Below are positions 508 to 63,002 of a stretch of DNA of 64,000 bases, piece after piece (positions within the stretch are counted from its first letter, which is position 1; the number at the start of each line of letters is the position of its first letter). The notes below the pieces were generated by a model. It was not told where the DNA came from. It did no database searches and was given only the letters and a program-made list of their open reading frames with translations. Position numbers and translations under genes: made by a program. This DNA is from an uncultured Prolixibacteraceae bacterium (GTDB lineage Bacteria > Bacteroidota > Bacteroidia > Bacteroidales > FEN-979), in the NCBI GenBank assembly GCA_964642545.1, contig CAZXQU010000005.1:1669-65668 (forward strand), given 5' to 3'.

Positions 508-549
508 AATTAAGAATTATGAGTTACGATTTACGAATTATCAGTTTAA
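508..549. repeat. 7-nt periodic degenerate array, 6 units (aattaag aattatg agttacg atttacg aattatc agtttaa)
   Basis: Read directly from the sequence. Fills the spacer between the purC stop (550-552) and the aminotransferase start (480). Confidence 0.8.
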
Positions 550-1500
550 TCAGTGTGATTGAAGCCAACGGAGAATATTTTGCTCTACACGTTTGATCAC
601 ATCAGAAGTGTCGGATTTTAAGAAACTCTCACCGGTGATCTTTTCATAGAGTTCAATATACCTTTCCGAAATCTGGTTCACAATGTCATCGGTCATTTCG
701 GGGACCTGCTGTCCGGCGTTTCCCATGAAATTATTCGCCATCAGCCATTCCCTCACAAACTCCTTTGAAAGCTGTTTCTGTTGCTCTCCATTCGCCTGGC
801 GCTCTTCGTATCCGCCGAGGTAGAAATAACGTGAAGAATCCGGGGTGTGGATCTCATCGATCAGATAAATCGTTCCATCGTCGCCTTTACCAAACTCATA
901 TTTTGTATCAACAAGGATCAGCCCTTTCTCTCTTGCCATTTCGGTGCCACGCTGGAACAGTTCCCTGGTGTATTTCTCAAGAAGTGCATAATCTTCAGCA
1001 GAGACAAGACCATGGCTGATGATCTCCTCTTTTGAGATATCTTCATCATGTCCTTCTGTGGCTTTGGTGGTGGGCGTGACGATAGGTTCGGGAAACCGCT
1101 CGTGCTCTTTCATCCCGTCGGGTATTGGCACTCCGCAAATCTCACGTGAACCATTTTTATAGGATCTCCATGAACTGCCAGTCAGGTAGCCCCGGATGAT
1201 CATCTCTACCGGAAAGGGTTTACAGTATTTGCCAATCGTGACGCTTGGGTCGGGACTGTCAATCTTCCAATTGGGACAGATATCTTCCGTCGCATCCAGG
1301 AATTTAATGGCAATCTGGTTCAAAACCTGACCCTTGTATGGAATGCCTCTCGGAAGTACTACGTCAAATGCGCTGATGCGGTCGGATGTGACCATCACCA
1401 AATAGGTGTCATCAATGTTGTATACATCTCTTACTTTCCCTTTGTAGAGGCTTTTTTGGCCGGGAAAACTGAACTCGGTTTTTCGGATTACGTTCTCCAT
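550..1500 (-). CDS. purC: Phosphoribosylaminoimidazole-succinocarboxamide (SAICAR) synthase
   Basis: The N-terminus [29 protein letters not shown]...TSDRISAFD is a PurC hallmark. The ORF-track TTG start at 1527 overlaps a TAacTTTG promoter box, so I take the ATG at 1498-1500. Confidence 0.9.
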
Positions 1501-1524
1501 ATTCACGTGTTGTTTTGTGGTTGA

Positions 1525-3394: not shown

Positions 3395-4126
3395 ATGTAC
3401 ACCCTTTTTAAGAAGGAATTGAACGGATTTCTGAACTCCCTGATAGGGTATATAGTAATCGTTGTATTCTTATTGGTTATCGGACTCTTTCTCTGGGTTT
3501 TTCCATTGCAGTTCAATATTTTCGACTTTGGATATGCCAATGTCGATGGCCTCTTTCTGCTTGGTCCGTTCGTTTTTCTGTTTCTGATTCCGGCAATCAC
3601 GATGCGCTCTTTTGCCGATGAGAAAAGGAGTGGGACACTCGAACTACTGATGACCCAACCACTGACTGACCTGCAAGTAATCCTGGCTAAATTCTTTGCC
3701 GGTATGGCACTTGTGATCTTTTCCCTGATCCCTACGCTGGTCTATGTCTATACGGTTTACCAACTGGGATTGCCATCTGGAAATCTCGACATGGGTAGCA
3801 TTTGGGGATCTTACATTGGATTGATCATGCTGGCCGGTGCTTTCGTTTCGATTGGAATCTTTTCATCCTCCCTAACAGATAACCAAATTGTCTCCTTTAT
3901 CCTTGCTGTGTTCCTGAGTTTCTTCATGTACATCGGATTTGAGTTTATCTATACCTTCATCATCTCCGGAAAAACGGGACTTCTGGTCCAGTCCATCGGA
4001 TTGAGCGACCATTATTCCTCCATGAGTCGTGGGGTAATCGATACGCGCGACCTGATCTACTTCCTCAGCGTGATGGCGTTTTTTATACTATTGACAAAGG
4101 TGAAGCTAGAGAGTAGGAAATGGTGA
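3395..4126 (+). CDS. gldF: Gliding-motility-associated ABC transporter permease GldF
   Basis: 243-aa multi-TM ABC-2 permease with N-terminus MYTLFKKELNGFLNSLIGYIVI. It is followed by a GldG-like gene, the canonical gldF-gldG order. Confidence 0.85.
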   Translation: MYTLFKKELNGFLNSLIGYIVIVVFLLVIGLFLWVFPLQFNIFDFGYANVDGLFLLGPFVFLFLIPAITMRSFADEKRSGTLELLMTQPLTDLQVILAKFFAGMALVIFSLIPTLVYVYTVYQLGLPSGNLDMGSIWGSYIGLIMLAGAFVSIGIFSSSLTDNQIVSFILAVFLSFFMYIGFEFIYTFIISGKTGLLVQSIGLSDHYSSMSRGVIDTRDLIYFLSVMAFFILLTKVKLESRKW

Positions 4127-4174
4127 AATAGTGAAAATGGTGAAATAGCGAAATGCGAAAAGCGAAAAACAAAA
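4113..4174. repeat. 7-9 nt periodic array, 8 units ending in GAAA (gtaggaaa tggtgaaa tagtgaaa atggtgaaa tagcgaaa tgcgaaa agcgaaa aacaaaa)
   Basis: Read directly. Contains the gldF stop (4124-4126) and the gldG ATG (4153) plus its first codons (MRKAKNK). Confidence 0.8.
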
Positions 4175-5901
4175 AGTGGGACATTAAGCGGAATAATATT
4201 CTTCAGGTAACCCTGGGGATTGTGATTATTTTGCTTGTGAACATTATCGCTTCCTTTGTTTTTACTCGAGTTGACCTGACAGCCGAAAAACGTTACTCAT
4301 TATCACCTGCTGTAAAAAGCATGCTAAAGGGGCTTGATGACGATGTTTTCTTCAGGGTTTACCTCGATGGAGAGTTGCCTTCCGGATTTCGCCGGCTTGC
4401 CAACGAAACCCGGGATATGCTCAACGAGTTCAGGGCCTACAGTGACCATATTCACTTCGAGTTCATCAATCCATCAGCGAGTCCGAATTCACGTGAGAGG
4501 AATGATACTTACAGACTTCTTGCAGAACAGGGGCTACAACCAACGGATCTTCGTGTAACCAACAAAGGAGAATCATCCCAACTGATCATTTTTCCCGGCA
4601 CTATCGTGGTTTACCGGGGTCGGGAATTACCGGTACAGTTATTAATGACACAGCTGGGTCAGGATCCGCAAAAGGTGCTGAATAACTCCATCCAGGCACT
4701 CGAGTATAACCTGGGTAATGCGATTGACAAGCTCATCAATGCCACGAAACCCAGAGTTGCAATTCTGGAGGGGCAGGGAGAGTTATCGAGGGAGGAGACC
4801 CTGGATATGGAAGATGCACTCTCCGAATACTACAATATTGAGAGAATTGTAATCAACAACAAGATCAACAGCCTGACTGTCAGGCTTAAGACTGATTCTT
4901 CCGGGTCGCCGTTGGTAAACAAATTCAAAGCACTGATTATTGCGGGTCCCGAACGGCGTTTTGATGATCGGGATAAGTTCCTTATCGACCAGTTTATCAT
5001 GCGTGGAGGAAGAGTATTGTGGATGATAGACCCTGTGTTTGCAAAAATGGACAGTTTGCAACAGTTTCCTTCTACCATGGGGATATCAAATGATATCAAT
5101 ATCGATGATATGCTTTTTAGCTATGGCGTGAGACTAAACAAGAACCTTGTCATGGATATGAGCGCGCTGCCGATCCCGGTGAAAACCGGACAAGTTGGAG
5201 ATCAGCCACAATTCGACTTCTTCCCATGGTACTATTTCCCTTTGATCACACCCGCCAGCAATCATCCCGTTGTAAATGGTCTGAATGTTGTAAAAACGGA
5301 GTTTATCAGCAGTATCGACACCGTTGAAGCGCCCGGAGTGAAAAAAACGGTTTTACTTACCTCTTCCCCTTACTCACGGATTGTCAATGCGCCGGTGTTG
5401 ATTGATCTTGAGATCCTTCGCGATGAACCTGATCCGCGAATGTATAATAGCGGGGCACAGCCGGTTGCAGTTCTTCTTGAAGGGGAGTTCACATCGGCAT
5501 ACCTGTTCAGGCTTCCTCCCGAAATAGAGTTGAATAAAGATATCGACTTCCGGAAGAAGAGCAAACCTACACGTATGGTTGTAATTGCCGATGGCGATAT
5601 CGCAAAGAACCAATATCATGTCACCCAGAAGTACCCGTTGCCTCTGGGATATGACCAATTTACCGGCCAGACTTTTGGGAATAAAGAGCTTCTGATAAAC
5701 ATTATGAACTACCTGTGTGATGATTCGGGTCTGATCTCCATCCGATCGAGGGAGCTGAAGTTAAGGTTGCTGGATATGACAAAACTGGCATCTCAACGAC
5801 CTTTATGGCAAGCTATTAATGTAATTCTCCCAATCATTCTGATCCTTGGATTTGGCTTGATTAAGTCCCAGTTGCGGAGAAGAAAATATACCAGAAAATG
5901 A
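4153..5901 (+). CDS. gldG: Gliding-associated ABC transporter substrate-binding component GldG
   Basis: 582 aa with N- and C-terminal TM anchors, in the position after gldF. Sequence is GldG-like (…RYSLSPAVKSMLKGLDDDVFFRVYL…). Confidence 0.85.
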   Translation: MRKAKNKKWDIKRNNILQVTLGIVIILLVNIIASFVFTRVDLTAEKRYSLSPAVKSMLKGLDDDVFFRVYLDGELPSGFRRLANETRDMLNEFRAYSDHIHFEFINPSASPNSRERNDTYRLLAEQGLQPTDLRVTNKGESSQLIIFPGTIVVYRGRELPVQLLMTQLGQDPQKVLNNSIQALEYNLGNAIDKLINATKPRVAILEGQGELSREETLDMEDALSEYYNIERIVINNKINSLTVRLKTDSSGSPLVNKFKALIIAGPERRFDDRDKFLIDQFIMRGGRVLWMIDPVFAKMDSLQQFPSTMGISNDINIDDMLFSYGVRLNKNLVMDMSALPIPVKTGQVGDQPQFDFFPWYYFPLITPASNHPVVNGLNVVKTEFISSIDTVEAPGVKKTVLLTSSPYSRIVNAPVLIDLEILRDEPDPRMYNSGAQPVAVLLEGEFTSAYLFRLPPEIELNKDIDFRKKSKPTRMVVIADGDIAKNQYHVTQKYPLPLGYDQFTGQTFGNKELLINIMNYLCDDSGLISIRSRELKLRLLDMTKLASQRPLWQAINVILPIILILGFGLIKSQLRRRKYTRK

Positions 5902-6962
5902 AAAAAAACAGAATCGTTTTACTTGTTGTTCTGATCCTGGCTATTGTAGCCATTGTTTTATTCTTTTCACGGTCGGATAAGACGTTTCAAAGTTCGCTGA
6001 GTGATTTTGCCATTGCAGATACTGCATCTGTAACCAAGATCTTTATGTCTGATAAAAATAACAACATGGTCACTCTCTCAAGGGAGGCTTACGGAAGCTG
6101 GGGGCTCAACGACAAATATATGGCTTCGAAGTTCAATATGGACATGTTACTTCAAACCTTACACAACCTGGCTGTAAAAGAACCGGTAGCCCTGGCAGCA
6201 CACGACAATGTGATCCGGGAACTTGCTGTCAATTCCGTGAAAGTTGAAATCTATCAGGAGGTATACCGTGTTGACTTGTTCAATACCATCAAGTGGTTTC
6301 CCCATGAGAAACTTACAAAGGTTTTCTATGTTGGCGGTGCAACCCAGAGCAATCGCGGAACTTATATGCTGATGGAAGACTCCTCTACGCCATTTGTAAT
6401 CTTTATACCTGGCTTCAGGGGGTTTGTTTCACCAAGGTTTACTCCAATGACCAATGCCTGGCGCGATTATACTATCTTCAAAAAGGAGTTGCCTCAGATC
6501 TCTTCTGTTAAAGTCGAAATTCCCGTTAAGGATAATGAATCGTATGTAATTACGAACAACCAAAATAGCTCCGTTTCCCTATACTCTTTCCCTGAGATGG
6601 AAATTATCCCTGGTTTCGACACTCTGGCGGTATTGAATTTTCTTACCGGATTCAGAAATCTCAATTTTGAAGGAGTTCTGAGTGATATTGATTCCGGGAA
6701 AAGGGATTCAGTGCTTGCCTCTACTCCGTTTACGATTATTACGTTGACAGACACTGTGGGTTTGAGTAAAACCATTAAAACCTTCTTCAAGGAGGGATAT
6801 GGGGAGGCCGATCTGAATGGAAATGAAATCCCCTATGACCTGGATAGATTTTATGCGCTGGTAAACGATGGCGAAGATTTTGTACTTGTACAATATTTTG
6901 CTTTCGACCGCGTGCTGCGTCCAAGATCTTTTTTCCTGAAGGATCCTCCCCCAATCCACTAG
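5898..6962 (+). CDS. DUF4340-like membrane-anchored protein commonly found downstream of gldG
   Basis: N-terminal TM segment. The ATGA overlap with the gldG stop suggests translational coupling. The family call rests on context and general resemblance only. Confidence 0.6.
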   Translation: MKKNRIVLLVVLILAIVAIVLFFSRSDKTFQSSLSDFAIADTASVTKIFMSDKNNNMVTLSREAYGSWGLNDKYMASKFNMDMLLQTLHNLAVKEPVALAAHDNVIRELAVNSVKVEIYQEVYRVDLFNTIKWFPHEKLTKVFYVGGATQSNRGTYMLMEDSSTPFVIFIPGFRGFVSPRFTPMTNAWRDYTIFKKELPQISSVKVEIPVKDNESYVITNNQNSSVSLYSFPEMEIIPGFDTLAVLNFLTGFRNLNFEGVLSDIDSGKRDSVLASTPFTIITLTDTVGLSKTIKTFFKEGYGEADLNGNEIPYDLDRFYALVNDGEDFVLVQYFAFDRVLRPRSFFLKDPPPIH

Positions 6963-8262: not shown

Positions 8263-8870
8263 CCGTAACAACCCCTGACAGATCAAAAATTTTAGAAAGA
8301 ATTCTTACGCTTGATAAAGTCTTTATCGAGTTGGGATGCGGATCAAGCAAAAAAGATTCTGCCGCCATTGGTATCGATATGGTAGATCTTCCTGGCGTGG
8401 ATATCGTTTGCAACCTGGAAGAGGGGCTACCATTTCTTCCGGATGAATGTGCTGATAGTGTGTTCTCCTCGCACTTTCTTGAACACCTATCAAACCTTGA
8501 TCTTATGATGTCAGAATCATTCCGGGTTCTTAAAAAAGGGGGAGTGATGAAGGGATGTGTTCCCCATTTTTCCAATCCCTATTTTTACAGCGATTATACA
8601 CATAAAACCTCATTCGGTCTGTATTCCTTTTGTTATTTTTCCAAGGAATCCCCATTCAAAAGGGGGGTGCCAATGTTCTATAATTCGTTTAATTTTAGGA
8701 TTAAAAGAGTTAAACTAGTTTTTTATTCTCCGTTCCTGATACGAAATATTTTCAGAAAGATACTAACCTGGGTGTTCAATTCATCCCGTTTTATGCAGGA
8801 GTGGTATGAAGAGGGATTCTGCTACATGTTTCCTGCGTATGAATTGGAATTTGAACTTGAGAAACTTTAA
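8259..8870 (+). CDS. Class I SAM-dependent methyltransferase (type 11)
   Basis: Motif I ELGCGSSKK and FSSHFLEHL...VLKKGG. The start at ATG 8259 forms an ATGA overlap with the flippase stop. Earlier in-frame Met codons lie inside the flippase gene. Confidence 0.75.
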   Translation: MTVTTPDRSKILERILTLDKVFIELGCGSSKKDSAAIGIDMVDLPGVDIVCNLEEGLPFLPDECADSVFSSHFLEHLSNLDLMMSESFRVLKKGGVMKGCVPHFSNPYFYSDYTHKTSFGLYSFCYFSKESPFKRGVPMFYNSFNFRIKRVKLVFYSPFLIRNIFRKILTWVFNSSRFMQEWYEEGFCYMFPAYELEFELEKL

Positions 8871-13335: not shown

Positions 13336-13350
13336 AATTCAGAACAGCCC
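13324..13350. terminator. Hairpin between convergent polymerase and gdhA genes (gggctgt / acagccc stem, 13-nt loop)
   Basis: A 7-bp perfect stem read directly. It overlaps the polymerase stop codon. The flanking T-run is weak. Confidence 0.3.
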
Positions 13351-13381
13351 AGCTGTCATATTTAAATGAGTATGTGAGAGT

Positions 13382-14997: not shown

Positions 14998-17900
14998 ATG
15001 CCAGGTAAGGACGAAAGAAAACGTGCAGGAAGAACTCCTGTCAACTCGAACGACGTTGAGAAACTCCTGCTGGATAATCGCGAAAGGCTCAAAGAACTTA
15101 CAGCGATTAACCATACCACGGCAATACTCAAGGAAAATAAGTCGATCCCTGATACGCTAACCCGAATTTGCCAGATTCTTCCAAAAGCATGGCAGTACCC
15201 AAAATATACTGTCATTCGTATCAGGTTTGATGAGATGGAGTTTACAAACAACAACTTCCGGGAAACTGCATGGAAGCAAGAGCAGGTATTTGAGACCATC
15301 GACAACCTGGTAGGCTCTCTGGAGGTCTTCTATGTGAAGGAGTTTCCGAAAGCATATGAAGGTCCTTTTCTGAAAGAGGAGCGCAACCTGATCAATACTC
15401 TCACCAGTTTAATTGAGGGTTACCTGAACGCCATCAAGGGGAAAGAAGGGAGGTATGTGACCACCGAAAGGCTGAAAGAGTTATCGGCGATAAATCAAAC
15501 CACCAGTATTCTCAGAACAGGAGCACCGCCCGATGAAGCACTGCATCAGATCTGTATGATTATTTCCAGGGCATGGCAGTATCCCGAATTTGCGGTTTGT
15601 AAGATCAAACACGGAAATATTGAAGTCCAAAGCCCCAATTTTCGCGAGACCCAATGGAGGCAACTACAGGTTTTTGAGACGATTGACAACCAGACCGGAT
15701 CTATTGAGATCTGCTATATAAAAGCATTCCCACAAGCGTTTGAAGGCCCTTTTCTGGAAGAAGAACGCGATCTGATCATCAACCTCTCCAACCTGATTGC
15801 AGGATATCTCAACTCTATCAAGGGAAAGGCAATCCTGAAAAAGAGCACACCCCATGCCGAGGAACCGGATAACGCCGATCGGGGAGGTGTTGATGGACAT
15901 TATAGCCGGCGACTCCTGCAGTCGTTCCTCAACCGAACAAACAACAACCGGGATATCTATCACGACCTGATGCCATTCAAGGTAAGGGAGATTCTGTTGG
16001 TTGCCAATCTGTATGATGCCTATAGCATAGAAAAAGAGGGACGGTTCTCGGAACATGTGTTGGGGCAGTTTTACCAGCTAAGCCTTAGCACGATGCCTCG
16101 AATCACCGGAGTCTCCTCCATCGAGGAAGTAATGGAACAGCTTCGTTCTAAGCACTACGACCTGGTCATTATCATGATGGGAGTTGACAAGCAGTTTCCT
16201 ACCGAACTCAGCACTGCCATAAAAAATGAATTCCAATACATCCCTGTATTCATGCTGTTAAACAGCAATACCGACCTGGCTCAGCTTGAAAAGGAACCAG
16301 ATCGGCTAAACTGGATCGATCGTGTATTTGTGTGGAATGGAGATACCCGGATCTTTTTTGCTATGATCAACTACCTGGAAGACAAGATCAATGTAGAGAA
16401 TGATACAAGACTGGGTATGGTAAGGGTGATCTTGCTCGTGGAAGACTCACCACAATATTATTCGCTTTATCTCCCGATGCTCTATAACATCGTACTGGAG
16501 CAAACCAAACACATCATTGAGGATGTCACAACGGATGAGCTTTACCGAATTCTTCGCCTCAAGGCCCGCCCGAAAATCCTGCTGGCTTCTACCTACGAGG
16601 AGGCAATGTATATCTTCAATAAATACAAGGAGTTTATTCTCTGCCTCATCTCAGATGTCAAATTTAAAAAGGATGGTAAGCTCAATGAAAATGCAGGAAT
16701 CATGCTTGTCAACCAAACCCGGAAAGAGGCCCGTGAGTTGCCAATAGTACTACAGTCCTCTGATGATTCCAATGCAGCAAAAGCCTATCAATTAAAAGCT
16801 TCCTTTATCAATAAAAATTCAGAGACCCTGTTGGTTGACTTCAGGAGTTTCATTACCCACTATTTGGGGTTTGGGAACTTCATTTACCGCGATAACGAGG
16901 GAAAACAGATCGGACTGGCAAAGTCTCTCAAAGAGTTCGAAGACCGGCTGAAAACAATCCCCGAAGAGTCGCTTTTATACCATGCCCGGAAAGACCACTT
17001 CTCCCTGTGGCTGACAGCACGCGGAGAGATCCAGGCTGCTAAGATACTCAACCCGGCCAAAGTTACCGACTTCAAGGATGCTGCAAGCTTGCGTGAATAC
17101 CTCATCTCGGTCATCTCCCATTTCAGAAATGAACAGAGCCGTGGGAAGGTAATCCCGTTCGAAGAATCATCCATCACCGATGCCACCAACATTGTCAGCT
17201 TAACTGAAGGAGCTCTGGGAGGGAAAGGTCGGGGACTGGCGTTTGTCAATACTCTGATATACAACTATGACTTCTCCCGACATGTCCCGAACATCAATAT
17301 ACTGACTCCAACTACCTCCATCATTGGAACGGATGAGTTTGAGTACTTCCTTGACAGGAACCATCTCAGGGAGAGAGCTGTTCAGGAGAGTGACTACCAA
17401 ATTATCCGTAGTTGGTTTGTGGAGGGGAAACTCTCGGAAACTCTGATCCGTAAACTGAGATTGCTGATCAGGCATCTGAACAAGCCGCTTGCCATCCGCT
17501 CCTCCGGACTATTTGAAGACTCCCTGAACCAACCTTTTGCAGGCATTTTTGAAACGTACCTGATCCCCAATGATCATCCAGATTCCAAAGTTAGGCTGGA
17601 ACAACTGAAGGATGCCATCAAACTCGTTTATGCATCTGTTTACTCTCCCACAGCCAAAGGGTATATTGAGGCCGTCAACTACCGTATCGAACAGGAGAAG
17701 ATGGCTATTGTGATCCAGGAGGTGGTTGGGAGCCAGCACGAGGATGTTTTCTATCCCCATATCAGCGGAGTTGCACAGTCGTATAATTATTATCCTTATG
17801 CCCACATGAAGCCTGAAGAGGGATTTGCCGTGATCGCGTTGGGCTTGGGACGTTTTGTGGTGGAAGGAGAAAAGGCGTTCAGATTTTCACCACATTATCC

Positions 17901-44917: not shown

Positions 44918-44925
44918 CAAAGGTA
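44918..44925 (-). promoter_or_regulatory. -7 box TAccTTTG for the 44125-44892 gene
   Basis: Forward caaaggta, 26 nt upstream of the GTG start. Confidence 0.4.
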
Positions 44926-44930
44926 AAAAT

Positions 44931-44966: not shown

Positions 44967-45239
44967 TAATTGTATAAACCGTAAATTCGTTAGTGTCGTT
45001 CTACCTGATACCGGCTTCGTTCACCATATGCTGCACAGGCCTGGCCAGAAGAGCATGAAGAAACAATCATGCCAACTACTATGATTGTCATAATCATGAT
45101 AACGACTTTTTTCATATTTTTGACGGAGAGATTCATAGTAAGAGATTTGGTTGCAAAATTATACATTTCTTAGTTACTAACAACAAATTTCAAGAGTGAT
45201 TACGTAAAGTTATTAACTGTCAATCGTTCATAATTCCAA

Positions 45240-47772: not shown

Positions 47773-47812
47773 ATTTTACATTTTACCATTTTACCATTTT
47801 ACCATTTTACAT
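47773..47812. repeat. 8-nt array, 5 units (attttaca ttttacca ttttacca ttttacca ttttacat)
   Basis: Read directly. The reverse complement (ggtaaaat) resembles the GTGAAAT family at 4113-4174. Its last unit merges into the ispE -7 box. Confidence 0.85.
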
Positions 47813-47815
47813 TTG
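47808..47815 (+). promoter_or_regulatory. -7 box TAcaTTTG for ispE
   Basis: Exact motif 11 nt upstream of the GTG start at 47826, which implies a very short leader. Confidence 0.35.
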
Positions 47816-47825: not shown

Positions 47826-48638
47826 GTGATCTGTTTTCCCAACGCTAAAATAAACCTCGGCCTTCATGTCACAGAAAGGAGGCCGGATGGCTTTCATACG
47901 ATTGAAACTATATTCTACCCTGTCGAAATGTGTGATGTGTTGGAGATCGTTCCTTCTGAAAATGGGGGCGTTGAATTTACCTGCACAGGGATTTCCATTC
48001 CTGGAGATCCGGAATCAAATCTGGTATTGAAGGCTCTTGGTCTGATTAGAGATACGCGATATGCGATGCGCGATACCCAAACAGGCATCGTTGATCTCGA
48101 ATCGCAAATCGCAGATCCCGGATCCCACATCCATTTACATAAAGTTATCCCTACCGGCGCCGGGCTGGGTGGTGGCTCTTCTGATGCAGCCTATTCCTTA
48201 AAATTGATGAACGATTTATGGAAGTTGGAGTTATCGGTTACGCAGTTACAGGATATCGCCAGACAACTCGGCAGTGACTGCGCATTTTTCATTGAGAACA
48301 AGCCGGTGTTTGCCTCAGGCCGGGGCGATCAGTTCGAACCAATTGACCTGGACCTCTCAGAATACAAAATAGTGGTTGTTGCTCCTCCGGTTCATGTAAG
48401 GACACAGGAGGCTTATGGGATGGTAACTCCCCGGAAACCCCGGCACTCCCTTAAAGAGATCGTAAGGCTGCCAGCAGATCGCTGGAGGAGATTACTCTCC
48501 AACGATTTTGAGGAGCCGGTCATGAAAAAGTATCCCGTCATCCGGGAAGTCAAAGAGGAACTTTATCGTCGGGGGGCCATTTATGCAGCCATGAGCGGAA
48601 GCGGGTCGGCGGTATTTGGGATCTTTAGCAAGCACTAA
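47826..48638 (+). CDS. ispE: 4-diphosphocytidyl-2-C-methyl-D-erythritol kinase
   Basis: FPNAKINLGLHV...KVIPTGAGLGGGSSDAA...MSGSGSAVFG (GHMP kinase motifs). GTG start. Confidence 0.9.
   Translation: MICFPNAKINLGLHVTERRPDGFHTIETIFYPVEMCDVLEIVPSENGGVEFTCTGISIPGDPESNLVLKALGLIRDTRYAMRDTQTGIVDLESQIADPGSHIHLHKVIPTGAGLGGGSSDAAYSLKLMNDLWKLELSVTQLQDIARQLGSDCAFFIENKPVFASGRGDQFEPIDLDLSEYKIVVVAPPVHVRTQEAYGMVTPRKPRHSLKEIVRLPADRWRRLLSNDFEEPVMKKYPVIREVKEELYRRGAIYAAMSGSGSAVFGIFSKH
48051..48131. repeat. In-frame heptamer arrays inside ispE (gatacgc gatatgc gatgcgc gataccc ... tcgaatc gcaaatc gcagatc ccggatc ccacatc)
   Basis: Read directly. Encodes DTRYAMRDTQTGIVDLESQIADPGSH, located between NLVLKALGLI and IHLHKVIP. 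Confidence 0.8.
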
Positions 48639-48656
48639 GCAGCAGGCAGTTTGATT

Positions 48657-48705
48657 CTTCGTCCCTCTTCCCTCTTCCCTCTTCCCTCGTCCTTCGTCCT
48701 ATCTC
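48657..48705. repeat. Heptamer array, 7 units (cttcgtc cctcttc cctcttc cctcttc cctcgtc cttcgtc ctatctc)
   Basis: Read directly, between convergent ispE and the permease gene. Contains the permease stop (48699-48701). Confidence 0.85.
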
Positions 48706-51042: not shown

Positions 51043-52245
51043 ATGCCAGATGCCTTCATCAACCCAAACCCGTTTCTTCTTGCACTATTTATCCTCTATG
51101 GATTTTGCTTCCTGGTGCAGATGGTATTTTACTGGGCAGTCTTCTTCAGAGTTGGGATAAAAGATAAGAGATCCGCGATTCGCGATATGCAATCCTCGGA
51201 TCCCGAACCGGAGCGAAGCGGAGTTCGGCGAAGCCAATCCCGGATCCCGGATCCCGTAATCGGTGTTTCCGTCGTCATCTGTGCCCATAACGAGTATCAA
51301 CAGTTGCAAAGTAACCTGCCGGGGATCCTCGAGCAGGACTACCCAATGTATGAAGTGGTGGTAGTGGATCATGCTTCGGATGATGATACGTCGTTTTTAC
51401 TCTCGGATCTGAGTGAGAAATATAAACACCTTAAAGTTGTCTCTATTCAACGTGACCTCAACTTTTTCACCGGGAAGAAGTTCCCCCTCTCCATCGGAAT
51501 TAAATCTGCAAAGCATGAGATCATTCTCCTCACGGATGCCGACTGCCGCCCTGCCGGGAACCAATGGGTGCGACTGATGCAGGAAGCTTTTACCGATGAC
51601 AAAGAGATCATCCTTGGTTACGGGCCTTATGAGATGCGTAAAGGCCTCTTAAATGCACTGATCCGTTTCGAAACCATTCAGGTGGCTATCCAGTACCTCT
51701 CTTTTGCGTTAGCTGGAATCCCATACATGGGAGTAGGGAGGAATCTGGCATACAGAAAAAGACTCTTTTATCAGGAGAAAGGATTCATCTCACACTATCG
51801 GATCAACAGTGGTGATGACGACCTGTTTATCAACCGCGTAGCCCATAAGAAAAATACTGGAGTGCAGCGAAATCCAGGATCCTTCACCTATTCTGAACCA
51901 AAAGTATCGTTGGGAAAGTGGTTCACCCAGAAAAGACGTCATATGACAACCGGCTCGCATTATAGATTTATACACAAGCTCCTGCTCGGTTTATATGGGT
52001 TCACCCAACTACTTTTTTGGGTACTGCTTGTTCTGTTGCTTGCCTGGAAATTCGCCTGGGTATTTGTTTTAAGTGTACTTTTGCTGCTATGGGTCAGCCA
52101 ATATATTGTGATTGGCAGATGCATGAAGAGGCTTCAGGAAAAGAGGCTGATTGCCTGGATTCCTCTACTTGAGTTGATGACACTCACTCTCCAGATTGTG
52201 ATCACAGGGACCAATTTCATTGTCAAACCCCATAAATGGAAGTAG
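51043..52245 (+). CDS. Membrane-anchored glycosyltransferase family 2
   Basis: N-terminal TM segment, VSVVICAHNEYQQL...VVVDHASDDDT...LTDADC, and C-terminal TM bundle. A repeat-derived linker lies between the TM segment and the catalytic domain. Confidence 0.8.
   Translation: MPDAFINPNPFLLALFILYGFCFLVQMVFYWAVFFRVGIKDKRSAIRDMQSSDPEPERSGVRRSQSRIPDPVIGVSVVICAHNEYQQLQSNLPGILEQDYPMYEVVVVDHASDDDTSFLLSDLSEKYKHLKVVSIQRDLNFFTGKKFPLSIGIKSAKHEIILLTDADCRPAGNQWVRLMQEAFTDDKEIILGYGPYEMRKGLLNALIRFETIQVAIQYLSFALAGIPYMGVGRNLAYRKRLFYQEKGFISHYRINSGDDDLFINRVAHKKNTGVQRNPGSFTYSEPKVSLGKWFTQKRRHMTTGSHYRFIHKLLLGLYGFTQLLFWVLLVLLLAWKFAWVFVLSVLLLLWVSQYIVIGRCMKRLQEKRLIAWIPLLELMTLTLQIVITGTNFIVKPHKWK
51170..51261. repeat. 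In-frame composite repeat inside the GT2 gene: heptamers (gatccgc gattcgc gatatgc aatcctc ggatccc) + 25-nt hairpin core (51205-51229) + gaagccaatc + cggatcc cggatcc cgtaatc
   Basis: Read directly. The core is identical to 35866-35890. Encodes about RSAIRDMQSSDPEPERSGVRRSQSRIPDPVIG. Confidence 0.85.
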
Positions 52246-54824: not shown

Positions 54825-54945
54825 ACGATTTCTTGGATCCCCATGGCAATCGATTGCAATCCATGTCAATTCACGTGCAAGGATGTTCAATTCTTTTGTA
54901 TTTTTACTTCATAGCCAACCAAATCAAAACCATTTATCCCCACCC

Positions 54946-57900: not shown

Positions 57901-60552
57901 GAAGGTTACTTCCGGATGCCGGGAGGCGAGAAGCAGGCTGCCACCATGCTCACATTTACTTCCGACAAACCGAAATATAAGGTTGGAGACCATGTAAAAC
58001 TTTCCATCCCTTCGGCAACGGGTGGAAGAGCCCTTATCACTCTCGAAAATGGTTCACAGGTAATTCGGTCGATCTGGGTCCCTACGGAACAAGGGCAAAC
58101 CGATGTCACATTTGAGGTTACAGGCGAGATGGCACCCAACATTTATGCGTTTGTCACCCTGCTGCAACCGCATGCACAAACAGTAAATGATTTGCCGATA
58201 CGACTGTACGGGGTCCTTCCTATCCTGGTTGAAAATCCCGGGACACATCTGAAGCCGGAGATCCAGATGAAGGAGGTTCTTGTTCCCGGCACCGATGCTA
58301 CCATCTCCGTGAAGGAGGCATCGGGGAGAGCCATGACATACACTCTTGCCATTGTTGACCAGGGGTTACTCGACCTTACCCGGTTCAAGACCCCCGATGC
58401 CTGGAATGTCTTTTACAGCCGCGAGGCGCTGGGTGTGAAAAGCTGGGATCTGTTTGATCTGGTGATGGGTGCTTATTCGGGAGAGTTGCAGCGGATACTC
58501 AGTATCGGCGGCGATGAGGAAAATGCCCTCCAGGGAAGCCTGAAGGCGAACCGGTTTGTGCCAATGGTTCGTTTTCTTGGGGTTTTTCAGCTGAAGAAGG
58601 GGCAAACGCAAGCCCATACCTTCCGGATGCCCGACTATATCGGAGCGGTAAGGGTGATGGTAGTGGCAGGAGAGGGAGAGTCGTTTGGCTCGGCGGAAAG
58701 TTCTGCCTTTGTGCGGAAACCTCTGATGGTCATGGGAACCCTCCCCAGGGTACTCGGACCCGACGAAACGGTGAAACTTCCGGTTACTCTCTTTGCGATG
58801 GAGAACAAGGTGAAAGAGGTGAAAGTCACCATCAAACCAAATGAGTTTTTCACAGTTGTTGGAAAATCAAGCCAACAGATCACATTCATAACTCCCGGGG
58901 AACAAGTAGCCATGTTTGAACTTCAGGTTCGGCCACAGGTGGGAGTGGGAACAGTAGAGATAGAAGCCATAGGCGGCGGGGAGATTTCAACGCAAACCAT
59001 TGAAATCGACATTCGAAATCCCAATCCTCCAATCAGTTCCGTGATCAGCAAAGCGATCCAGCCAGGAGCTTCATGGAGTACACCTTTCAAACCAATTGGA
59101 ATGGCTGGAACGAACACCGGCTCACTTGAGCTGTCAACCATTCCTCCAATGAATCTTGAGAAGTGGATGACCTACCTTATTCGATATCCATATGGCTGCA
59201 TCGAGCAAACCATCTCCGCTGCATTTCCACAGCTCTACCTGAATACGCTGATGGATACGTCAGATGAAAAGAGGGGGGAGGTTGAAACCAACATCCGCGA
59301 AGCGATCAAGCGGTTAAACTCCTTTCAGGTTCCGGGTGGAGGGTTCTCCTATTGGCCCGGGTCATCCTATCCCAATGACTGGGGAACCAATTATGCCGGG
59401 CATTTCCTGATAGAAGCCGAAAAGCAGGGGTATGCTGTCCCAGGAAACCTGCTTGGAAACTGGAAAACATTCCAGCACCGGAAGGCGGCTACATGGGAGA
59501 CCAACCTGAGTTATGCCAACAACGACCTGATCCAGGCTTACCGTTTGTTTACCCTTGCTCTGGTGGGTGATGCCGACCTTGGCGCGATGAACAGGTTGCG
59601 GGAATGGAACAGCCTGTCGAACACCGCGCGCTGGTATCTTGCCGGAGCTTACCAGGAAGCCGGAAAGCCTGAAGTTGCCATGGCTCTGATTGAACGGGCA
59701 ACGCATGATGTGAAACCTTACAATGAGCTTTCGGGGACATTCGGCTCTACCCTGAGAGATCAGGCAATCATCGCTGAGGTGTTGTGCCTGATGAACATGC
59801 AGACAAAGGCAACCCCGCTGATCCAGGAGATTGCCGGAAAGCTTGCCGGCAGTGGGTGGTACAGCACTCAAACGACTGCCTTCGCATTGATGGCTGTTGC
59901 TGAATATGCCGGGAGTAAAGATGGGAGCGGTGTAACTGCCAGCTACAGGTATGGCCTTGATAAGATGCAGGAAATTGCCTCATCCAAGAGTATGGCACTG
60001 ATCGATATTCCAGGTCTGGATACATCTCCTCCAGGATCGGTGGAGGTTCAAAACAGAGGGAAGGGTGTGCTTTTTGCCCAACTCATCCTGAACGGGATTC
60101 CCCTTCCCGGGCTGGAAGCTGCAGCGTCCAACGATCTGCGCATCTCTGTAAAATGGATGGACCTGAAAGAACAACCAATAAATCCGGCAAAGCTCCCTCA
60201 GGGGATGACCTTCCTGGTAGAGGTGACGGTTTCAAATCCAGGCTTAAGGGGGGATTACGAACAGCTTGCACTTGCACAGACCTTTCCTTCCGGATGGGAG
60301 ATCATCAATGCCCGTATGAGCGCTATGGCCCAGGCGGAAGAGACCACATCCCAGTTTGATTACCAGTACATTGGTGACGACAGGGTGAATACATTCTTTT
60401 CACTGAAGGCTGGAACAGGCAAACGTTTCCGGATCATGCTCAACACAACTTACCTTGGACGGTTCTATCTTCCAGCTACAAGCTGCGAAGCGATGTATGA
60501 TCATACCATCTATGCCCGGGATGCGGGGGGATGGGTGGAGGTTGTTAAGTAG
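54946..60552 (+). CDS. Bacterial alpha-2-macroglobulin family protein (YfhM/ECAM-like), thioester-containing, TM-anchored
   Basis: About 1870 aa with repeated MG-like beta domains. Thioester motif YPYGCIEQTIS, followed by an alpha/alpha-toroid (TED) and a C-terminal receptor-binding-like domain. Start taken at MNTRSWFIAGV (TM anchor). Confidence 0.9.
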   Translation: MNTRSWFIAGVASILVAAIVIFFFLSPWKQFKTKVFSPDQVNPAYQQYVQAFTSGVISSQSTILVVLADDVADSALFSGIDSEKLFEFTPGISGQTFRVNNRTIEFRPNNVLPSGESFRAVLKLSELFDVPDSMSLFEFGFSIMKQQFEVEVLNHKAYNNKDLSRERLFGTLLTSDFASQEAVAGIVGVTQNGLELPVTWTHEPGGRTHYFRADSIVRSQVRGEVMVRWNGESIGADQKGEEQVVIPALDQFIFLNARMVQAPDQKVIVQFSDPLDPKQNLKGMFSLGGSRDLRYAVEDNELVIYPAELHGDSVQLVIEADIRNLAGKKLGSRVTDSSLQTLAGKGVVMTLPVVVTMPAVRFLGDGVIMPGSSGLLFPFEAVNLKAVDIMVIRIFEENILQFLQVNGLGGSNELYRVSRVVLKKRIPLTNVVDYSSWNRFSIDLNDLIKAEPGAIYNIQLSFRKEYSTYPCGQTTAERDIPVLMKAYDPDSINDRNWNYYSDYTWYDYEDYDWQERDNPCKPTYYMDKSISRNVFASNLGLIAKMGSGNRCQVYVTDLITAQPVSGATVEVFNYQQVKLGKTSTNSDGIAVIDLSQKPYFIVASRGRETGYLTLTDGGALSLSMFDVGGEVVQHGIKGFLYGERGVWRPGDSLFLTFILDDQAGTLPKNHPVNFSFYNPRGQLMKSLVKAPTLGNFYTFHVATASDAPTGNWMAKVKVGGAEFKKLLKVETVKPNRLKILIDVPGNKLIAGSIPEITMKVNWLTGPIAANLNASVNLTLTKSSSPFTKFPGYIFDFPFSGFSSENTAIFTGRLNEKGEAKFLPEIHLTASAPGVLKASFETMVFEEGGGFSVDRFSVPYFPYPTYAGISVPQPTKGAYALVAGKAYDISLLNITAEEKVVPSGKLKVEVFKLDWRWWWDDTESGYSASFIANQSHNLKAQQVLQATDGKAIYRFLTDREEWGRYLIKVTDIASGHSAGKVVYVDWEGYFRMPGGEKQAATMLTFTSDKPKYKVGDHVKLSIPSATGGRALITLENGSQVIRSIWVPTEQGQTDVTFEVTGEMAPNIYAFVTLLQPHAQTVNDLPIRLYGVLPILVENPGTHLKPEIQMKEVLVPGTDATISVKEASGRAMTYTLAIVDQGLLDLTRFKTPDAWNVFYSREALGVKSWDLFDLVMGAYSGELQRILSIGGDEENALQGSLKANRFVPMVRFLGVFQLKKGQTQAHTFRMPDYIGAVRVMVVAGEGESFGSAESSAFVRKPLMVMGTLPRVLGPDETVKLPVTLFAMENKVKEVKVTIKPNEFFTVVGKSSQQITFITPGEQVAMFELQVRPQVGVGTVEIEAIGGGEISTQTIEIDIRNPNPPISSVISKAIQPGASWSTPFKPIGMAGTNTGSLELSTIPPMNLEKWMTYLIRYPYGCIEQTISAAFPQLYLNTLMDTSDEKRGEVETNIREAIKRLNSFQVPGGGFSYWPGSSYPNDWGTNYAGHFLIEAEKQGYAVPGNLLGNWKTFQHRKAATWETNLSYANNDLIQAYRLFTLALVGDADLGAMNRLREWNSLSNTARWYLAGAYQEAGKPEVAMALIERATHDVKPYNELSGTFGSTLRDQAIIAEVLCLMNMQTKATPLIQEIAGKLAGSGWYSTQTTAFALMAVAEYAGSKDGSGVTASYRYGLDKMQEIASSKSMALIDIPGLDTSPPGSVEVQNRGKGVLFAQLILNGIPLPGLEAAASNDLRISVKWMDLKEQPINPAKLPQGMTFLVEVTVSNPGLRGDYEQLALAQTFPSGWEIINARMSAMAQAEETTSQFDYQYIGDDRVNTFFSLKAGTGKRFRIMLNTTYLGRFYLPATSCEAMYDHTIYARDAGGWVEVVK
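59198..59209 (+). other. CIEQ thioester motif codons (tgc atc gag caa)
   Basis: Read directly in frame within ...RYPYGCIEQTISAAFP... Confidence 0.85.
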
Positions 60553-60612
60553 GGAGGTAGGGAAGAAGGAAAGTAGGTATGAGTATATGAGGGTATGTGT
60601 GTATGAGGGAAA
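60547..60612. repeat. Loosely 7-nt periodic purine-rich array (aagtagg gaggtag ggaagaa ggaaagt aggtatg agtatat gagggta tgtgtgt atgaggg)
   Basis: Read directly. Contains the A2M TAG stop (60550-60552) and the candidate pbpC start codons. Periodicity is weaker than in the other arrays. Confidence 0.55.
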
Positions 60613-63002
60613 ATTTACTGCCAACTGCGAACTGCCAACTGCGAACTGCAAGGCACTGGCTGATCAGGCTGTCGCCGGTTATCCTTTTCGCCATACTACT
60701 TTCCTGGTGGTTATGGCTGCCTGATCCCCTCTTTCACGACCCGACATCAACCGTATTAACAGATCGGGATAATCGGCTTTTGGGAGCACAGATCGCTTCC
60801 GACCAGCAATGGCGGTTCCCGGAGAGTTACTCGACTCCTTTAAAATTCAGGAAGGCGATAACCACCTATGAGGATCGGTGGTTTTACTTTCATCCCGGAA
60901 TCAACCCGGTTGCCTTGATCAGGGCATTGAAGCTGAATATCGAACACGGAGAGGTGGTTAGTGGCGGAAGCACCATTTCGATGCAGGTGATCAGACTTAC
61001 GAGGAAAAACCGTCCTCGCACCTATTTTGAGAAGCTCCTGGAAGTATTGCTGGCACTCAGGTTAGAGCTTGGTTATTCGAAAGAGGAGATCCTTGGATTG
61101 TATGCATCACACGCCCCTTTCGGTGGGAATGTGGTAGGACTGGAAGCTGCATCATGGCGTTATTTTGGAGTCAAACCCGACAATCTTTCCTGGGGTGAAG
61201 CTGCCACTCTTGCGGTTTTACCAAACAGTCCCGGTTTGATCTATCCGGGTCGGAATCCCGAGAAACTTCGTGAGAAACGAGCCCATTTACTCGACCTCCT
61301 GGCGATTCATGGAGAGATCGACCAACAGACCTGCGATCTGGCTAAAGCTGAGGTACTCCCAGGGATGCCGCTTCCCTTACCTCAGCTGGCGCCCCATCTC
61401 CTCGTGCGTGCAATGCGCGAAGGATATAAGGGGGAGAAGATCCATAGTACCCTTGACTATACACTTCAGCAAACTGTGTCGGATATTCTTTCCCGCCACG
61501 CCTTGTACCACAAAGCAAACGAGATTTATAATGCAGCTGCACTGGTTTTATCGGTGAATTCGGGAGAAGTACGGGCTTATGTCGGGAATATTCCCGGCGA
61601 CGGGACAGGTAGCCACGGCAGTGCCGTTGATATTATTCCGGCAAACAGAAGTACAGGCAGTCTTCTGAAACCCTTTCTCTTTGCTGCCATGCTTAACGAC
61701 GGACTGTTGCTGCCAACCACCCTTGTTCCGGATATTCCTACCCAGATGGGTGGTTTTGTGCCGGAAAACTACAACCGGACATATGATGGGGCGGTTCCGG
61801 CTAAACGGGCATTGGCACGTTCGTTGAATATCCCGGCGGTAAAAATGCTTCAGGCCTACGGTTATGAGCAGTTTTACGGACTTCTCAGGAAGATTGGGAT
61901 GAACTCACTTTCGAAGCCGGCCGACCATTATGGACTGGCTATGATCCTTGGCGGAGCTGAATCATCCCTCTGGGAGATGACCGGCATTTATGCATCCATG
62001 GCACGCACCCTGAACCACTACCTGGCTGACAGTTCTGGTTATTCGAAACAGGATTTTCATCCTCCGAACTATTTGGCTCAAGAGACCCCATTTCCCCCAC
62101 CTCTGGATGCTACTTCCTGGTTTGATGCCGGCACGATATGGCTCACTTTTGAAGCGATGGTGGAGGTGGCTCGGCCGGAGACGGATATGCAATGGCAGCA
62201 ATTTGCCTCATCCAGCAGAATAGCCTGGAAAACAGGAACGAGCTTTGGGAACCGGGATGCCTGGGCAATAGGTGTTACACCAGAATATGTGGTTGGCGTG
62301 TGGGTTGGAAACGCAACAGGAGAGGGGAGACCCGGATTGACAGGCTTGGGAATGGCTGCTCCCATTCTGTTTGAGATTTTCGATGCCCTGCCTGCGGGCG
62401 GATGGTTTGCCATGCCCGGATCAGCGTTAGACTCATTGGCCGTTTGCCGCTATAGTGGTTATCGTGTCTCCTCCCTCTGTGAGCTGGTGGATACCATACT
62501 GGTACCCAAGAGAGGAGTCGAAACGGGAGCCTGCCCTTTTCACCACCTGGTTCACCTCGACCCATCAGAAAACTATCAGGTCAATTCCAGCTGCATCTCT
62601 CCAAGCCAGATTATCCACAAGCCCTGGTTTTTACTTCCTCCTGTTCAGGAATATTATTTCAGCCGGAAAAACCCCTTTTACAAAAATCTTCCCCCATGGC
62701 TTCCGGGATGTGAACCATCTGCTGTCAAGAGTTCCATTGGTATGATCTATCCGAAAAACAACAGCAGCATTTACATTCCTGTCGAGTTGGACGGAACGCC
62801 TGGAGCAGCCATTTTCAGAGCGGCACATCACAATCCTGACGGAATCCTTTACTGGCATCTTGACGAGACATACCTTGGCAGCACGACTGGTCTCAACCAG
62901 ATGGAACTTTCACCTACACCAGGCTGGCACACCCTCACCCTCGTCAACCAGCAGGGAGAGATGTTGGAGATCCGGTTTGAAGTGATGGGGAAGCGGGAAT
63001 GA
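60603..63002 (+). CDS. pbpC: Penicillin-binding protein 1C (bifunctional glycosyltransferase/transpeptidase-like)
   Basis: GT51 motifs EDRWFYFHPGINP and GGSTISMQ. Transpeptidase-like motifs STGSLLKP, SLNIPAV and KTGTSFGNRDAW. PBP1C-type C-terminal domain. Start at ATG 60603 (or GTG 60597). Confidence 0.9.
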   Translation: MRENLLPTANCQLRTARHWLIRLSPVILFAILLSWWLWLPDPLFHDPTSTVLTDRDNRLLGAQIASDQQWRFPESYSTPLKFRKAITTYEDRWFYFHPGINPVALIRALKLNIEHGEVVSGGSTISMQVIRLTRKNRPRTYFEKLLEVLLALRLELGYSKEEILGLYASHAPFGGNVVGLEAASWRYFGVKPDNLSWGEAATLAVLPNSPGLIYPGRNPEKLREKRAHLLDLLAIHGEIDQQTCDLAKAEVLPGMPLPLPQLAPHLLVRAMREGYKGEKIHSTLDYTLQQTVSDILSRHALYHKANEIYNAAALVLSVNSGEVRAYVGNIPGDGTGSHGSAVDIIPANRSTGSLLKPFLFAAMLNDGLLLPTTLVPDIPTQMGGFVPENYNRTYDGAVPAKRALARSLNIPAVKMLQAYGYEQFYGLLRKIGMNSLSKPADHYGLAMILGGAESSLWEMTGIYASMARTLNHYLADSSGYSKQDFHPPNYLAQETPFPPPLDATSWFDAGTIWLTFEAMVEVARPETDMQWQQFASSSRIAWKTGTSFGNRDAWAIGVTPEYVVGVWVGNATGEGRPGLTGLGMAAPILFEIFDALPAGGWFAMPGSALDSLAVCRYSGYRVSSLCELVDTILVPKRGVETGACPFHHLVHLDPSENYQVNSSCISPSQIIHKPWFLLPPVQEYYFSRKNPFYKNLPPWLPGCEPSAVKSSIGMIYPKNNSSIYIPVELDGTPGAAIFRAAHHNPDGILYWHLDETYLGSTTGLNQMELSPTPGWHTLTLVNQQGEMLEIRFEVMGKRE
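60618..60652. repeat. Heptamer array, 5 units (ctgccaa ctgcgaa ctgccaa ctgcgaa ctgcaag)
   Basis: Read directly. Lies inside the pbpC reading frame (encodes LPTANCQLRTAR). Same unit as 19442-19455. Confidence 0.85.

Follow-up and report, generated by a model that had tools for sequence, protein, structure and literature searches.

Tandem arrays of seven-nucleotide units are a described feature of bacterial intergenic DNA. Here we analyse a family of degenerate 7- and 8-nt arrays at gene ends in a 64,000-nt stretch of DNA from an uncultured Prolixibacteraceae bacterium (Bacteroidota, Bacteroidales; GenBank assembly GCA_964642545.1, contig CAZXQU010000005.1, positions 1,669 to 65,668), hereafter the window. 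The closest precedent is the work of Rehm et al. (2015), who reported the G-rich heptamers GGGAATC and GGGGA(C/T)T (GGGGAYT) in Xanthomonas and Nostoc (PMC4692102). Those repeats are over-represented in non-coding DNA and under-represented between divergent open reading frames (ORFs); the nearest ORF lies on the 5' side of the G-rich strand regardless of its orientation, and the repeats are found on the coding strand near stops and on the non-coding strand upstream of ORFs (PMC4692102). They occupy the same gene pairs in relatives with extensive variation in length and sequence, are not associated with mobile elements, surface genes or virulence genes, and yielded no function (PMC4692102). MacGregor (2015) described TAACTGA direct repeats in marine Beggiatoaceae, Cyanobacteria and five Bacteroidetes; these intergenic arrays of 2-6 (up to 43) copies lie beside start or stop codons with an orientation bias, and other heptamer arrays accompany them in Bacteroidetes spacers (PMC4679880). 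As cited there, Mrazek (2007) found heptamers to be the commonest long-unit simple-sequence repeats (SSRs) and suggested slippage; these long SSRs (LSSRs; units of 5-11 nt) are, in the summaries of both papers (PMC4679880, PMC4692102), non-coding unless the unit length is a multiple of three. Tandem heptanucleotides of Calothrix PCC 7601 had been reported earlier, according to a citation in PMC4692102.

The window arrays belong to this already described class: they are heptameric SSRs of the LSSR type, akin to short tandemly repeated repetitive (STRR) sequences and to the repeats of Rehm et al. An earlier reading of the same DNA, made from its letters only (the sequence-only reading), had found no described function for the repeats; the class turns out to be described (PMC4692102, PMC4679880), and what stands of that statement is that these reports assign it no function. 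Like the Rehm repeats, the window arrays are concentrated in non-coding DNA, rare between divergent genes, polar by strand and present in the same spacers of relatives. They differ in that the published words are absent, many units are 8 nt long, the arrays are shorter and more degenerate, and the host is a Bacteroidota lineage. The Rehm subclass has four or more tracts of three G (G3) and prefers four units, whereas one window array alone has four G3 tracts, and the G-quadruplex (G4) rationale therefore does not carry over. The window word CTGCCAA falls in the same CTGNNAA/ACTG-core group as TAACTGA, a rotation of CTGATAA, and both occur in one metagenome locus (L169). MacGregor's arrays consist of one word and lie mostly 5' of starts, whereas the window has many words and a dominant stop-proximal position; no TAACTGA dimer with at most one mismatch occurs in it.

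Other comparisons are more distant. That with LSSRs draws on the summaries in PMC4679880 and PMC4692102 and on cyanobacterial STRR words. Phase-variable contingency-locus SSRs, which switch a promoter or reading frame, likewise have short tandem units whose copy number can change by slippage; unlike them, the window arrays are degenerate, mostly 3'-proximal and beside housekeeping genes. Repetitive extragenic palindromic (REP) sequences, bacterial interspersed mosaic elements (BIMEs), MITEs (miniature inverted-repeat transposable elements) and intrinsic terminators are also extragenic, at gene 3' ends and between convergent genes, but REP, BIME and MITE repeats are imperfect palindromes and most window arrays have no fold. 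Nor are the arrays CRISPR loci, as the sequence-only reading had already said: their units are contiguous, unlike identical repeats of ~24-48 nt with unique spacers.

The window alone reveals no new kind of system. It does show a high array density in an uncultured Bacteroidota lineage, with arrays that supply stop and start codons and encode protein tails and linkers. New here is the extension of the placement rule to words that do not form G4s, to octamers and to Bacteroidota. The rule, by which the G-rich strand starts at the nearest gene end, is not tied to G4-forming words, and the possible explanations are therefore narrowed. We propose, with a probability of about 0.5, that the arrays are slippage-generated heptanucleotide and octanucleotide SSRs that survive where insertions and deletions are harmless, and whose strand is filtered by neighbouring expression signals. 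For annotation, array turnover may lie behind called starts and stops and behind apparent differences in C-termini from strain to strain.

Excess of period-7 and period-8 arrays

Arrays were called with Tandem Repeats Finder (TRF) at period 7 or 8 and score cut-offs of at least 36, 40 and 50, and were compared with 100 dinucleotide-preserving shuffles of the window built in 1-kb blocks. At these cut-offs the window holds 16, 12 and 5 arrays, against 0.17, 0.01 and 0 expected. Periods 5-6 and 9-13 show no enrichment over the shuffles of the window at a score of at least 40. Head-to-tail units of 7 nt, within the 5-11 nt of the class, thus exceed chance by TRF and shuffling. At or inside each of the 15 intervals at which arrays had originally been listed, TRF finds a match of period 7 or 8 (15/15), and each was also read directly, for example as five units of GGAAATTA at 25093, of ATTTTACC at 47773 and of ACTGCCA/ACTGCGA at 60617.

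The window is matched at 99.99-100% identity, arrays included, by independent contigs of three JGI samples (among them 3300028298 and 3300028176), of the ENA assembly ERZ27248961 and of one Logan run, and the arrays are therefore not assembly artefacts. By this assembly-level comparison all independent contigs are identical through the arrays, with no copy-number polymorphism in the population. Given the same arrays in assemblies of five samples, the 12 arrays observed against 0.01 in shuffles and the orthologous arrays of relatives, we assign a negligible probability to an assembly artefact or chance low-complexity sequence.

Spacers are scarce in this compact genome: intergenic DNA amounts to 2,743 nt, or 4.3% of the window, yet 13 of 21 TRF arrays fall within it (p=2e-13) and cover 19% of its bases. 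For comparison we gathered Bacteroidota loci that surround orthologues of TGT and LptF/G, 1.5 Mb in total, in which the dominant periods are 7, 14 and 21. The median density there is 0.95 arrays per 10 kb, against 3.3 in the window and 5-10 in some loci. Array-rich relatives in culture include Pedobacter sp. Hv1 (L042), Pontibacter sp. H259 (L020) and Gramella forsetii. The dominance of heptamers over other unit lengths is a statement about 64 kb of this genome and 1.5 Mb of related loci.

Placement at gene ends and strand polarity

The sequence-only reading had arrays packed against gene ends; of those it listed, the arrays at 48051-48131 (IspE), 51170-51261 (a GT2 glycosyltransferase, hereafter GT2) and 60617-60649 (PBP1C) are coding and not intergenic. 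Nine stop codons had been counted inside or against arrays, and we count ten, with the NuoE-like gene added to purC, gldF, the 1237-aa oxidoreductase, ORF 28988-29551, GATase_7, the metallophosphatase, ORF 44125-44892, LptF/G and A2M.

To separate gene ends from short spacers in the Bacteroidota loci, each array was placed at random within its own spacer, and arrays within 2 nt of a stop were scored as abutting. Stops are abutted by 25 of 105 intergenic arrays against 8.5 expected, and in informative spacers by 19 against 4.6 (P<1e-5), an association beyond the short-spacer effect. Spacers of at least 40 nt carry 0.22 arrays each when convergent, 0.17 when co-directional and 0.05 when divergent (chi-square p=1.2e-5), so that arrays are 4-5 fold rarer per divergent spacer. 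The stop-abutting excess and the per-spacer rates together therefore establish that the association with gene 3' ends is real.

The arrays are also polar. Directly after a stop, G exceeds C on the sense strand of the gene in 35 arrays against 11 with the reverse (p=5e-4), and in 25 against 9 among independent metagenome-locus arrays; array-free 3' flanks have no G/C skew (mean -0.05; Mann-Whitney p=1e-7). In arrays at most 30 nt 5' of a start, C exceeds G on the sense strand (26 against 6, p=5e-4). The window obeys the rule both after stops (GGAAATTA, GTAGGGAG, GAAATAG, TAGAAGT, GGGAAGA) and before starts (TGAAACC, ACTGCCA, ATTTTACC). An explanation by replication strand was considered and rejected: the cumulative GC skew of the window rises steadily while its G-rich strands face both ways, tracking the adjacent gene, and the rule is therefore relative to genes and not to replication. 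Co-directional spacers show no purine bias.

The strongest adjacency to stop codons is that of the commonest word, CTGCCAA/TTGGCAG. A metagenome scan for (CTGCCAA)3 gave loci whose G+C ranges over 33-73%. Of the 68 that were usable, 23 have an opposite-strand ORF of 100 codons or more that ends -3 to +8 nt from the array, which in mRNA sense reads stop-(TTGGCAG)n; the mirror arrangement is seen in 2 of 61. Inverted partner arrays at CTGCCAA loci lie on the far side only (18 against 0).

The sequence-only reading had raised the idea that periods of 7 and 8 exist to offer stops in all three frames downstream of genes. Several sense words that abut stops do contain TAG, TAA or TGA (GGAAATTA-G, GTAGGGAG, GAAATAG, TAGAAGT). 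However, units with a stop triplet number 44 in the sense and 42 in the antisense direction of 68, and 13 against 11 of 25 when stop-abutting arrays only are counted, with no asymmetry; the commonest word has a stop triplet on neither strand. We consider the idea highly improbable.

Folding and G4 potential

The statement that most arrays cannot form hairpins is borne out, since 11 of 13 folded regions have z between -1.0 and +1.5, and in 5 of those 11 the minimum free energy (MFE) is 0 to -2.1 kcal/mol. The hairpin-like regions are 19402-19470, with an inverted CAGTTTG/CTGCCAA pair (z -3.65), and 48045-48135, the IspE insert (z -2.3). As a general description, long hairpins made by inverted array pairs were considered and set aside: they account for some loci only, namely these two, several other Bacteroidota loci and 18 of 80 CTGCCAA loci, and are not the rule because most window arrays are unfolded. 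Most arrays have neither the imperfect palindrome nor the stable hairpin, followed in terminators by a U-tract, by which REP or MITE repeats and intrinsic terminators are recognized, and an Rfam 15 search of the window gave no match at the gathering score. Classic terminators are present at 13336-13381 and 44893-44989, separate from the arrays. Four G3 tracts occur in a single window array, at 48663-48686, and most words have no G3 tract.

Turnover in relatives

Relatives were drawn from LptF/G homologues (96, 95, 89, 87 and 82% identity) and PBP1C homologues (87 and 86%), and the loci L088, L090-L093, L214, L215 and L007 were compared with the window; in a TGT-based contig scan the nearest relative is 76% identical among the matches listed. 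Unit gain or loss and conservation had been posed as alternatives for orthologous spacers. In fact close relatives keep the array position, with units gained, lost and diverging there, and at some sites relatives have no spacer. Stop-proximal spacers are hypervariable, and the promoter-bearing divergent spacers TGT|GT2 and RadC|BirA are ~95% conserved and array-free.

Individual spacers illustrate this range. The window array between BirA and ORF255 has an ortholog in L088 with unit indels and point changes, and in L090 the two genes overlap without a spacer. The ATTTTACC array 5' of IspE is conserved in five of five relatives. Between IspE and LptF/G, the TTCGTCC and CTCTTCC units of the window correspond to arrays in four of five relatives (L088, L090, L092, L093), the genes overlapping in L091. 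Because the units there form a graded series (CACTGCC, CACGTCC, TTCGTCC, CTCTTCC), rapid divergence fits this spacer better than wholesale replacement by unrelated words, which we rejected. Between ECF and the peptidase the window has 5 nt, and L088, L090 and L091 have 57-90 nt of (GTAGGGAG)n-(GTATGAG)n-(CACTGCC)n, with 6, 3 and 2 copies of GTAGGGAG, respectively; L093 has 125 nt, in which the first two positions hold other words. Between A2M and PBP1C the window carries these three words again in unchanged order, a composite that has an ortholog, with units turned over, in L214. A tandem duplication in L214 (3935-3950) takes in the final 16 nt of A2M with its stop codon, which is a direct array seed event at a gene end. 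The more distant L007 (62% LptF/G identity) carries arrays with other words directly after its LptF/G and ORF255 stops. In L214, a tetranucleotide repeat, (GGTA)~12 at 6450-6500, directly follows the PBP1C stop.

In-frame copies vary as well. The array at 48051-48131 occupies a lineage-variable loop of IspE, and that at 51170-51261 the hypervariable linker by which the membrane helix of GT2 is joined to its catalytic domain. Window IspE ends ~20 codons earlier (48620-48660) than in L088 and L090-L093, where the C-terminal LAVGSWQF is encoded by an in-frame (TTGGCAG)3; behind its stop codon the window still carries the remnant GGCAGTTTGAT. This C-terminus has been reshaped by array turnover. 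The GT2 linker of L092 (~8560-8650) contains the 7-residue repeat GTRHEAS/GMRHEAS, three heptamers per peptide repeat, and shows a route from 7-nt arrays to 7-aa protein repeats.

Origin and role of the arrays

In the reading that we favor, arrays would be born and changed by tandem duplication and by slipped-strand gain or loss of whole units, with point mutation and re-expansion of variant units following. Because gaining or losing 7 or 8 nt throws a gene out of frame, they would persist only at harmless places: short stop-proximal spacers, the first or last few codons, and disordered loops or linkers in which the total repeat length stays in frame. Expression signals of the neighbouring gene would then filter which strand faces it. 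Arrays 5' of starts would be kept G-poor, A/C-rich and unstructured, fitting the Shine-Dalgarno-independent initiation of Bacteroidota, and arrays directly after stops G-rich and C-poor. The outcome would be a fast-evolving filler that accounts for much of the intergenic DNA, remodels protein termini and supplies stop and start codons. We thus infer slippage as the mechanism, with selection behind the strand rule and no dedicated trans-acting factor. Consistent with this, the excess is specific to arrays of period 7 or 8, orthologues are set apart by point changes and by indels of entire units, the L214 duplication seeds an array at a gene end, coding copies keep the frame in variable loops and linkers, some relatives have no spacer at array sites, and the window has 5 nt where relatives have arrays of ~90 nt. 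Heptamer slippage by polymerase has been proposed, and the same placement and variability reported, by others (PMC4692102; PMC4679880, citing Mrazek 2007).

Several observations weigh against slippage with filtering. Pure slippage does not predict a shared vocabulary, yet among 101 period-7 arrays 14 are of the word CTGCCAA/CTGCCCA and 20 contain an ACTG/CAGT core (5.5% expected), and two loci share three words in identical order. Nor does it predict (TTGGCAG)n at most 8 nt from stops at 33-73% G+C with a 23:2 orientation bias. Hairpins in convergent spacers have a median of -11.8 kcal/mol where an array is present and -17.9 kcal/mol where it is absent (p=0.005), which hints that arrays may replace terminators. 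Slippage with filtering accounts neither for the shared vocabulary nor for the cross-phylum stop-(TTGGCAG)n arrangement, and it offers no established selective reason for the G-richness after stops.

The main rival view, possible though doubtful, is that the arrays are cis-acting transcript-boundary elements replacing hairpin terminators at many gene ends. As the G-rich strand would always start at the gene, outgoing RNA would be G-rich and C-poor, and incoming RNA C-rich, G-poor and unstructured; C-rich RNA could load Rho, and G-rich RNA, or G4s, could be a pause site for RNA polymerase or a barrier to 3'-5' exonucleases. Such elements would account for the polar strand rule, seen here and in PMC4692102, for enrichment in convergent and co-directional and depletion in divergent spacers, and for the weaker hairpins of array-bearing convergent spacers. 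Three convergent spacers of the window hold an array alone with no significant hairpin, the deac|RadC spacer has hairpins in the window and L088 and an array in L090, arrays remain at the same spacers across relatives despite sequence turnover, and 48663-48686 has exactly four G3 tracts. However, many arrays lie in likely operons (gldF-gldG, NuoE-NuoF, A2M-PBP1C), where termination is unexpected, most words cannot form G4s, and relatives do without the array at some sites, where genes overlap or the spacer is 5 nt. The Rho version meets a further difficulty. Cyanobacteria are not known to possess Rho. Nostoc obeys the same placement rule (PMC4692102), which weakens a purely Rho-based account as the general mechanism. 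A broader form of the proposal, which we regard as speculative and rather improbable, is that ACTG-core words such as (TTGGCAG)n, whose G-rich strand has its 5' end right at a stop or, in mirror image, at a start in genomes of 33-73% G+C, are phylum-spanning, directional, G4-independent gene-boundary elements. They would replace hairpin terminators and mark or insulate transcript ends by acting on transcription, RNA decay or translation, perhaps with a conserved factor that recognizes them.

The word vocabulary and the 7-8 nt period would be explained if the arrays were multi-site docking platforms for a single-stranded nucleic-acid-binding protein, such as a cold-shock-domain, S1 or RRM protein, that reads ~7 nt per domain. 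Words do recur across loci and lineages, the arrays are unstructured, and the same proposal was made for TAACTGA, with CspB binding heptamer repeats at one protein per heptamer (PMC4679880). We think docking unlikely, given dozens of unrelated words side by side (69 distinct cyclic units among 101 period-7 arrays), their fast drift at one site between close relatives, and the absence from the window of a candidate protein linked to arrays. Arrays might instead be mobile or copied elements, inserted at gene ends by transposition, inter-locus gene conversion or templated synthesis. Two loci share the tripartite order (GTAGGGAG)n-(GTATGAG)n-(ACTGCCA)n, A2M|PBP1C (window and L214) and ECF|peptidase (L088, L090 and L091); an identical 25-nt core lies in arrays at two loci, and a 52-nt segment with it is inverted between the window and L090; (CTGCCAA)n spans contigs of 33-73% G+C. 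Yet the arrays have no associated terminal inverted repeats, target-site duplications or transposase, deletion explains the presence/absence differences equally well, and no mobile-element link was found by Rehm et al. (PMC4692102). The window composite is orthologous to that of L214, which rules out its recent insertion at 60547-60649. Mobility is in our judgement very unlikely.

Word families

Unit families do recur at distant loci and on both strands, as TRF and direct reading confirm. The cyclic unit AATTACG is found at 508 and 29546 and, reverse-complemented, at 37180; CTGCCAA/CTGCGAA at 19442 and 60617; GAAATRG at 4113 and 35851; and CTTC-type units at 44067 and 48659. The (CTGCCAA)n spacers of the metagenome loci (L094-L173) are often mosaics of several heptamer arrays, with variant units in successive blocks (CTGACAA, CTGCTAA, CTGACCA, CTGAAAA, CTGATAA) and up to 40 units (L167). 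A literature search for the word CTGCCAACTGCCAA returned one paper only, which is unrelated.

Arrays of the window

From left to right, a reverse-strand AATTACG-type array of ~6 degenerate heptamers (505-549; MFE 0 kcal/mol) fills the entire 45-nt spacer from the purC stop (550) to the start of a DegT-like gene (504). On the forward strand, an unstructured GAAATRGY/GAAAAGC array (4113-4176) runs from the final codons of gldF through its stop and the 26-nt spacer into gldG, whose start and opening codons it covers. Also forward, CAGTTTG units (19402-19432) start at the stop of the NuoE-like gene and form the inverted pair (z -3.65) with two copies of CTGCCAA, the commonest word of this lineage, at 19442-19456; the 15-nt unit TAAAGAAACCAATAT follows in 2.7 copies (19472-19511; TRF score 80), immediately 5' of the NuoF-like start. 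The stop of the 1237-aa Fe-S/molybdopterin oxidoreductase lies in 5.2 copies of GGAAATTA (25093-25134, forward), G-rich on the sense strand, and 3.9 copies of TGAAACC (25151-25178, forward), with more C than G on the sense strand, lie 10 nt 5' of a rubrerythrin-like start.

GAATTAC in 3.6 copies (29543-29570, forward) overlaps the stop of ORF 28988-29551; the transposase label once given to this ORF is not upheld, as it has no Pfam match at E<=1e-3, and the same search gave none for ORFs 36444-37148 and 44125-44892. Two of the arrays listed by the sequence-only reading, 35851-35939 and 51170-51261, are composites, each built around the same 25-nt non-repeat core. The first composite (35851-35937, forward) has AAATAGCG/AAATGGTG units at the GATase_7 stop, the core (35866-35890), ATAGCSAA units and 2.8 copies of TTCGTGTC. 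On the reverse strand, an AATTACG-family array (37180-37206) abuts the metallophosphatase stop (37206), 31 nt from the stop of the convergent gene, and a TAGAAGT/ACGAAGG array (44067-44128, in the sense of ORF 44125-44892) overlaps the stop of that ORF; within the latter, ACTTCTA was read directly seven times at 44082.

The ATTTTACC array (5.5 copies, 47773-47814, forward) lies 11 nt 5' of the IspE start, contains no G, has an MFE of 0 and is the one kept in five relatives. The window (47203-47727), L088 and L091 have a lipocalin (Blc-like) gene between MauG and IspE that L090, L092 and L093 lack; the array stays with IspE whether or not that gene is present. Within IspE, GATACGC and inverted GCGATTY/GGATCCC units (48051-48131, forward) encode residues 76-102. 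The reverse-strand GGGAAGA/GGACGAA array (48659-48699, in the sense of LptF/G), read directly as six TCCCTCT/TCGTCCC units, begins at the LptF/G stop and includes the G4 motif at 48663-48686. In GT2, inverted GATYCGC and GGATCCC arrays (51170-51261, forward) surround the second copy of the core (51205-51229). At 60547-60612 (forward), the GTAGGGAG array holds the A2M stop and the GTATGAG array after it supplies the PBP1C start codon; 4.7 copies of ACTGCCA/ACTGCGA (60617-60649, forward) then encode the N-terminal cytoplasmic tail of PBP1C.

Coding arrays elsewhere on the forward strand comprise CCGGCAT (2.9 copies, about three heptamers or seven codons, 46441-46460) in a MauG-like peroxidase gene, CAACTGY (four copies, 31900-31927) in a heparinase II/III-like gene on the opposite strand, and TGCCGGA (3.6 copies, 36143-36168) in a CarbopepD_reg-domain gene. 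The three-copy CCGGCAT array is kept in relatives (L088 13187, L090 12701, L091 13228), and the word also occurs inside IspE of L092 and in the CarbopepD_reg gene of the window (36143-36168).

Other repeats and gene content

The 25-nt core, GAACCGGAGCGAAGCGGAGTTCGGC, is identical at 35866-35890 and 51205-51229, lies inside heptamer arrays at both sites, contains a GCGAAGC mini-hairpin motif and is in frame in the GT2 linker. L088 has no copy of it. In L090 (8540-8600) a segment of ~52 nt with the core is present in exact inversion, has inverted GGATCCC arrays on either side and is still in frame.

The window encodes GldF/GldG, proteins with type IX secretion system (T9SS) C-terminal domains and the A2M-PBP1C pair, and its nearest named relatives are metagenome-assembled genomes (MAGs) labelled 'Bacteroidales'. 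The cluster of the NuoE-like, NuoF-like and 1237-aa Fe-S/molybdopterin oxidoreductase genes is flanked by two large paralogues with PPDK_N plus response-regulator receiver domains (14998-18870 and 25936-28917). A REP-like 61-nt repeat, which is separate from the heptamer arrays, is found at the 3' ends of two genes (21290-21350 and 42451-42511); its copies are 97% identical and combine a CCCCTAAAGGGG...CCCCTTTAGGGG hairpin with a G4 motif. Finally, a period-10 array of three CCATGGCAAT-like units (54841-54870) spans the peptidase start and the first bases of the divergent peptidase|A2M spacer, and is one of few repeats in a promoter region.

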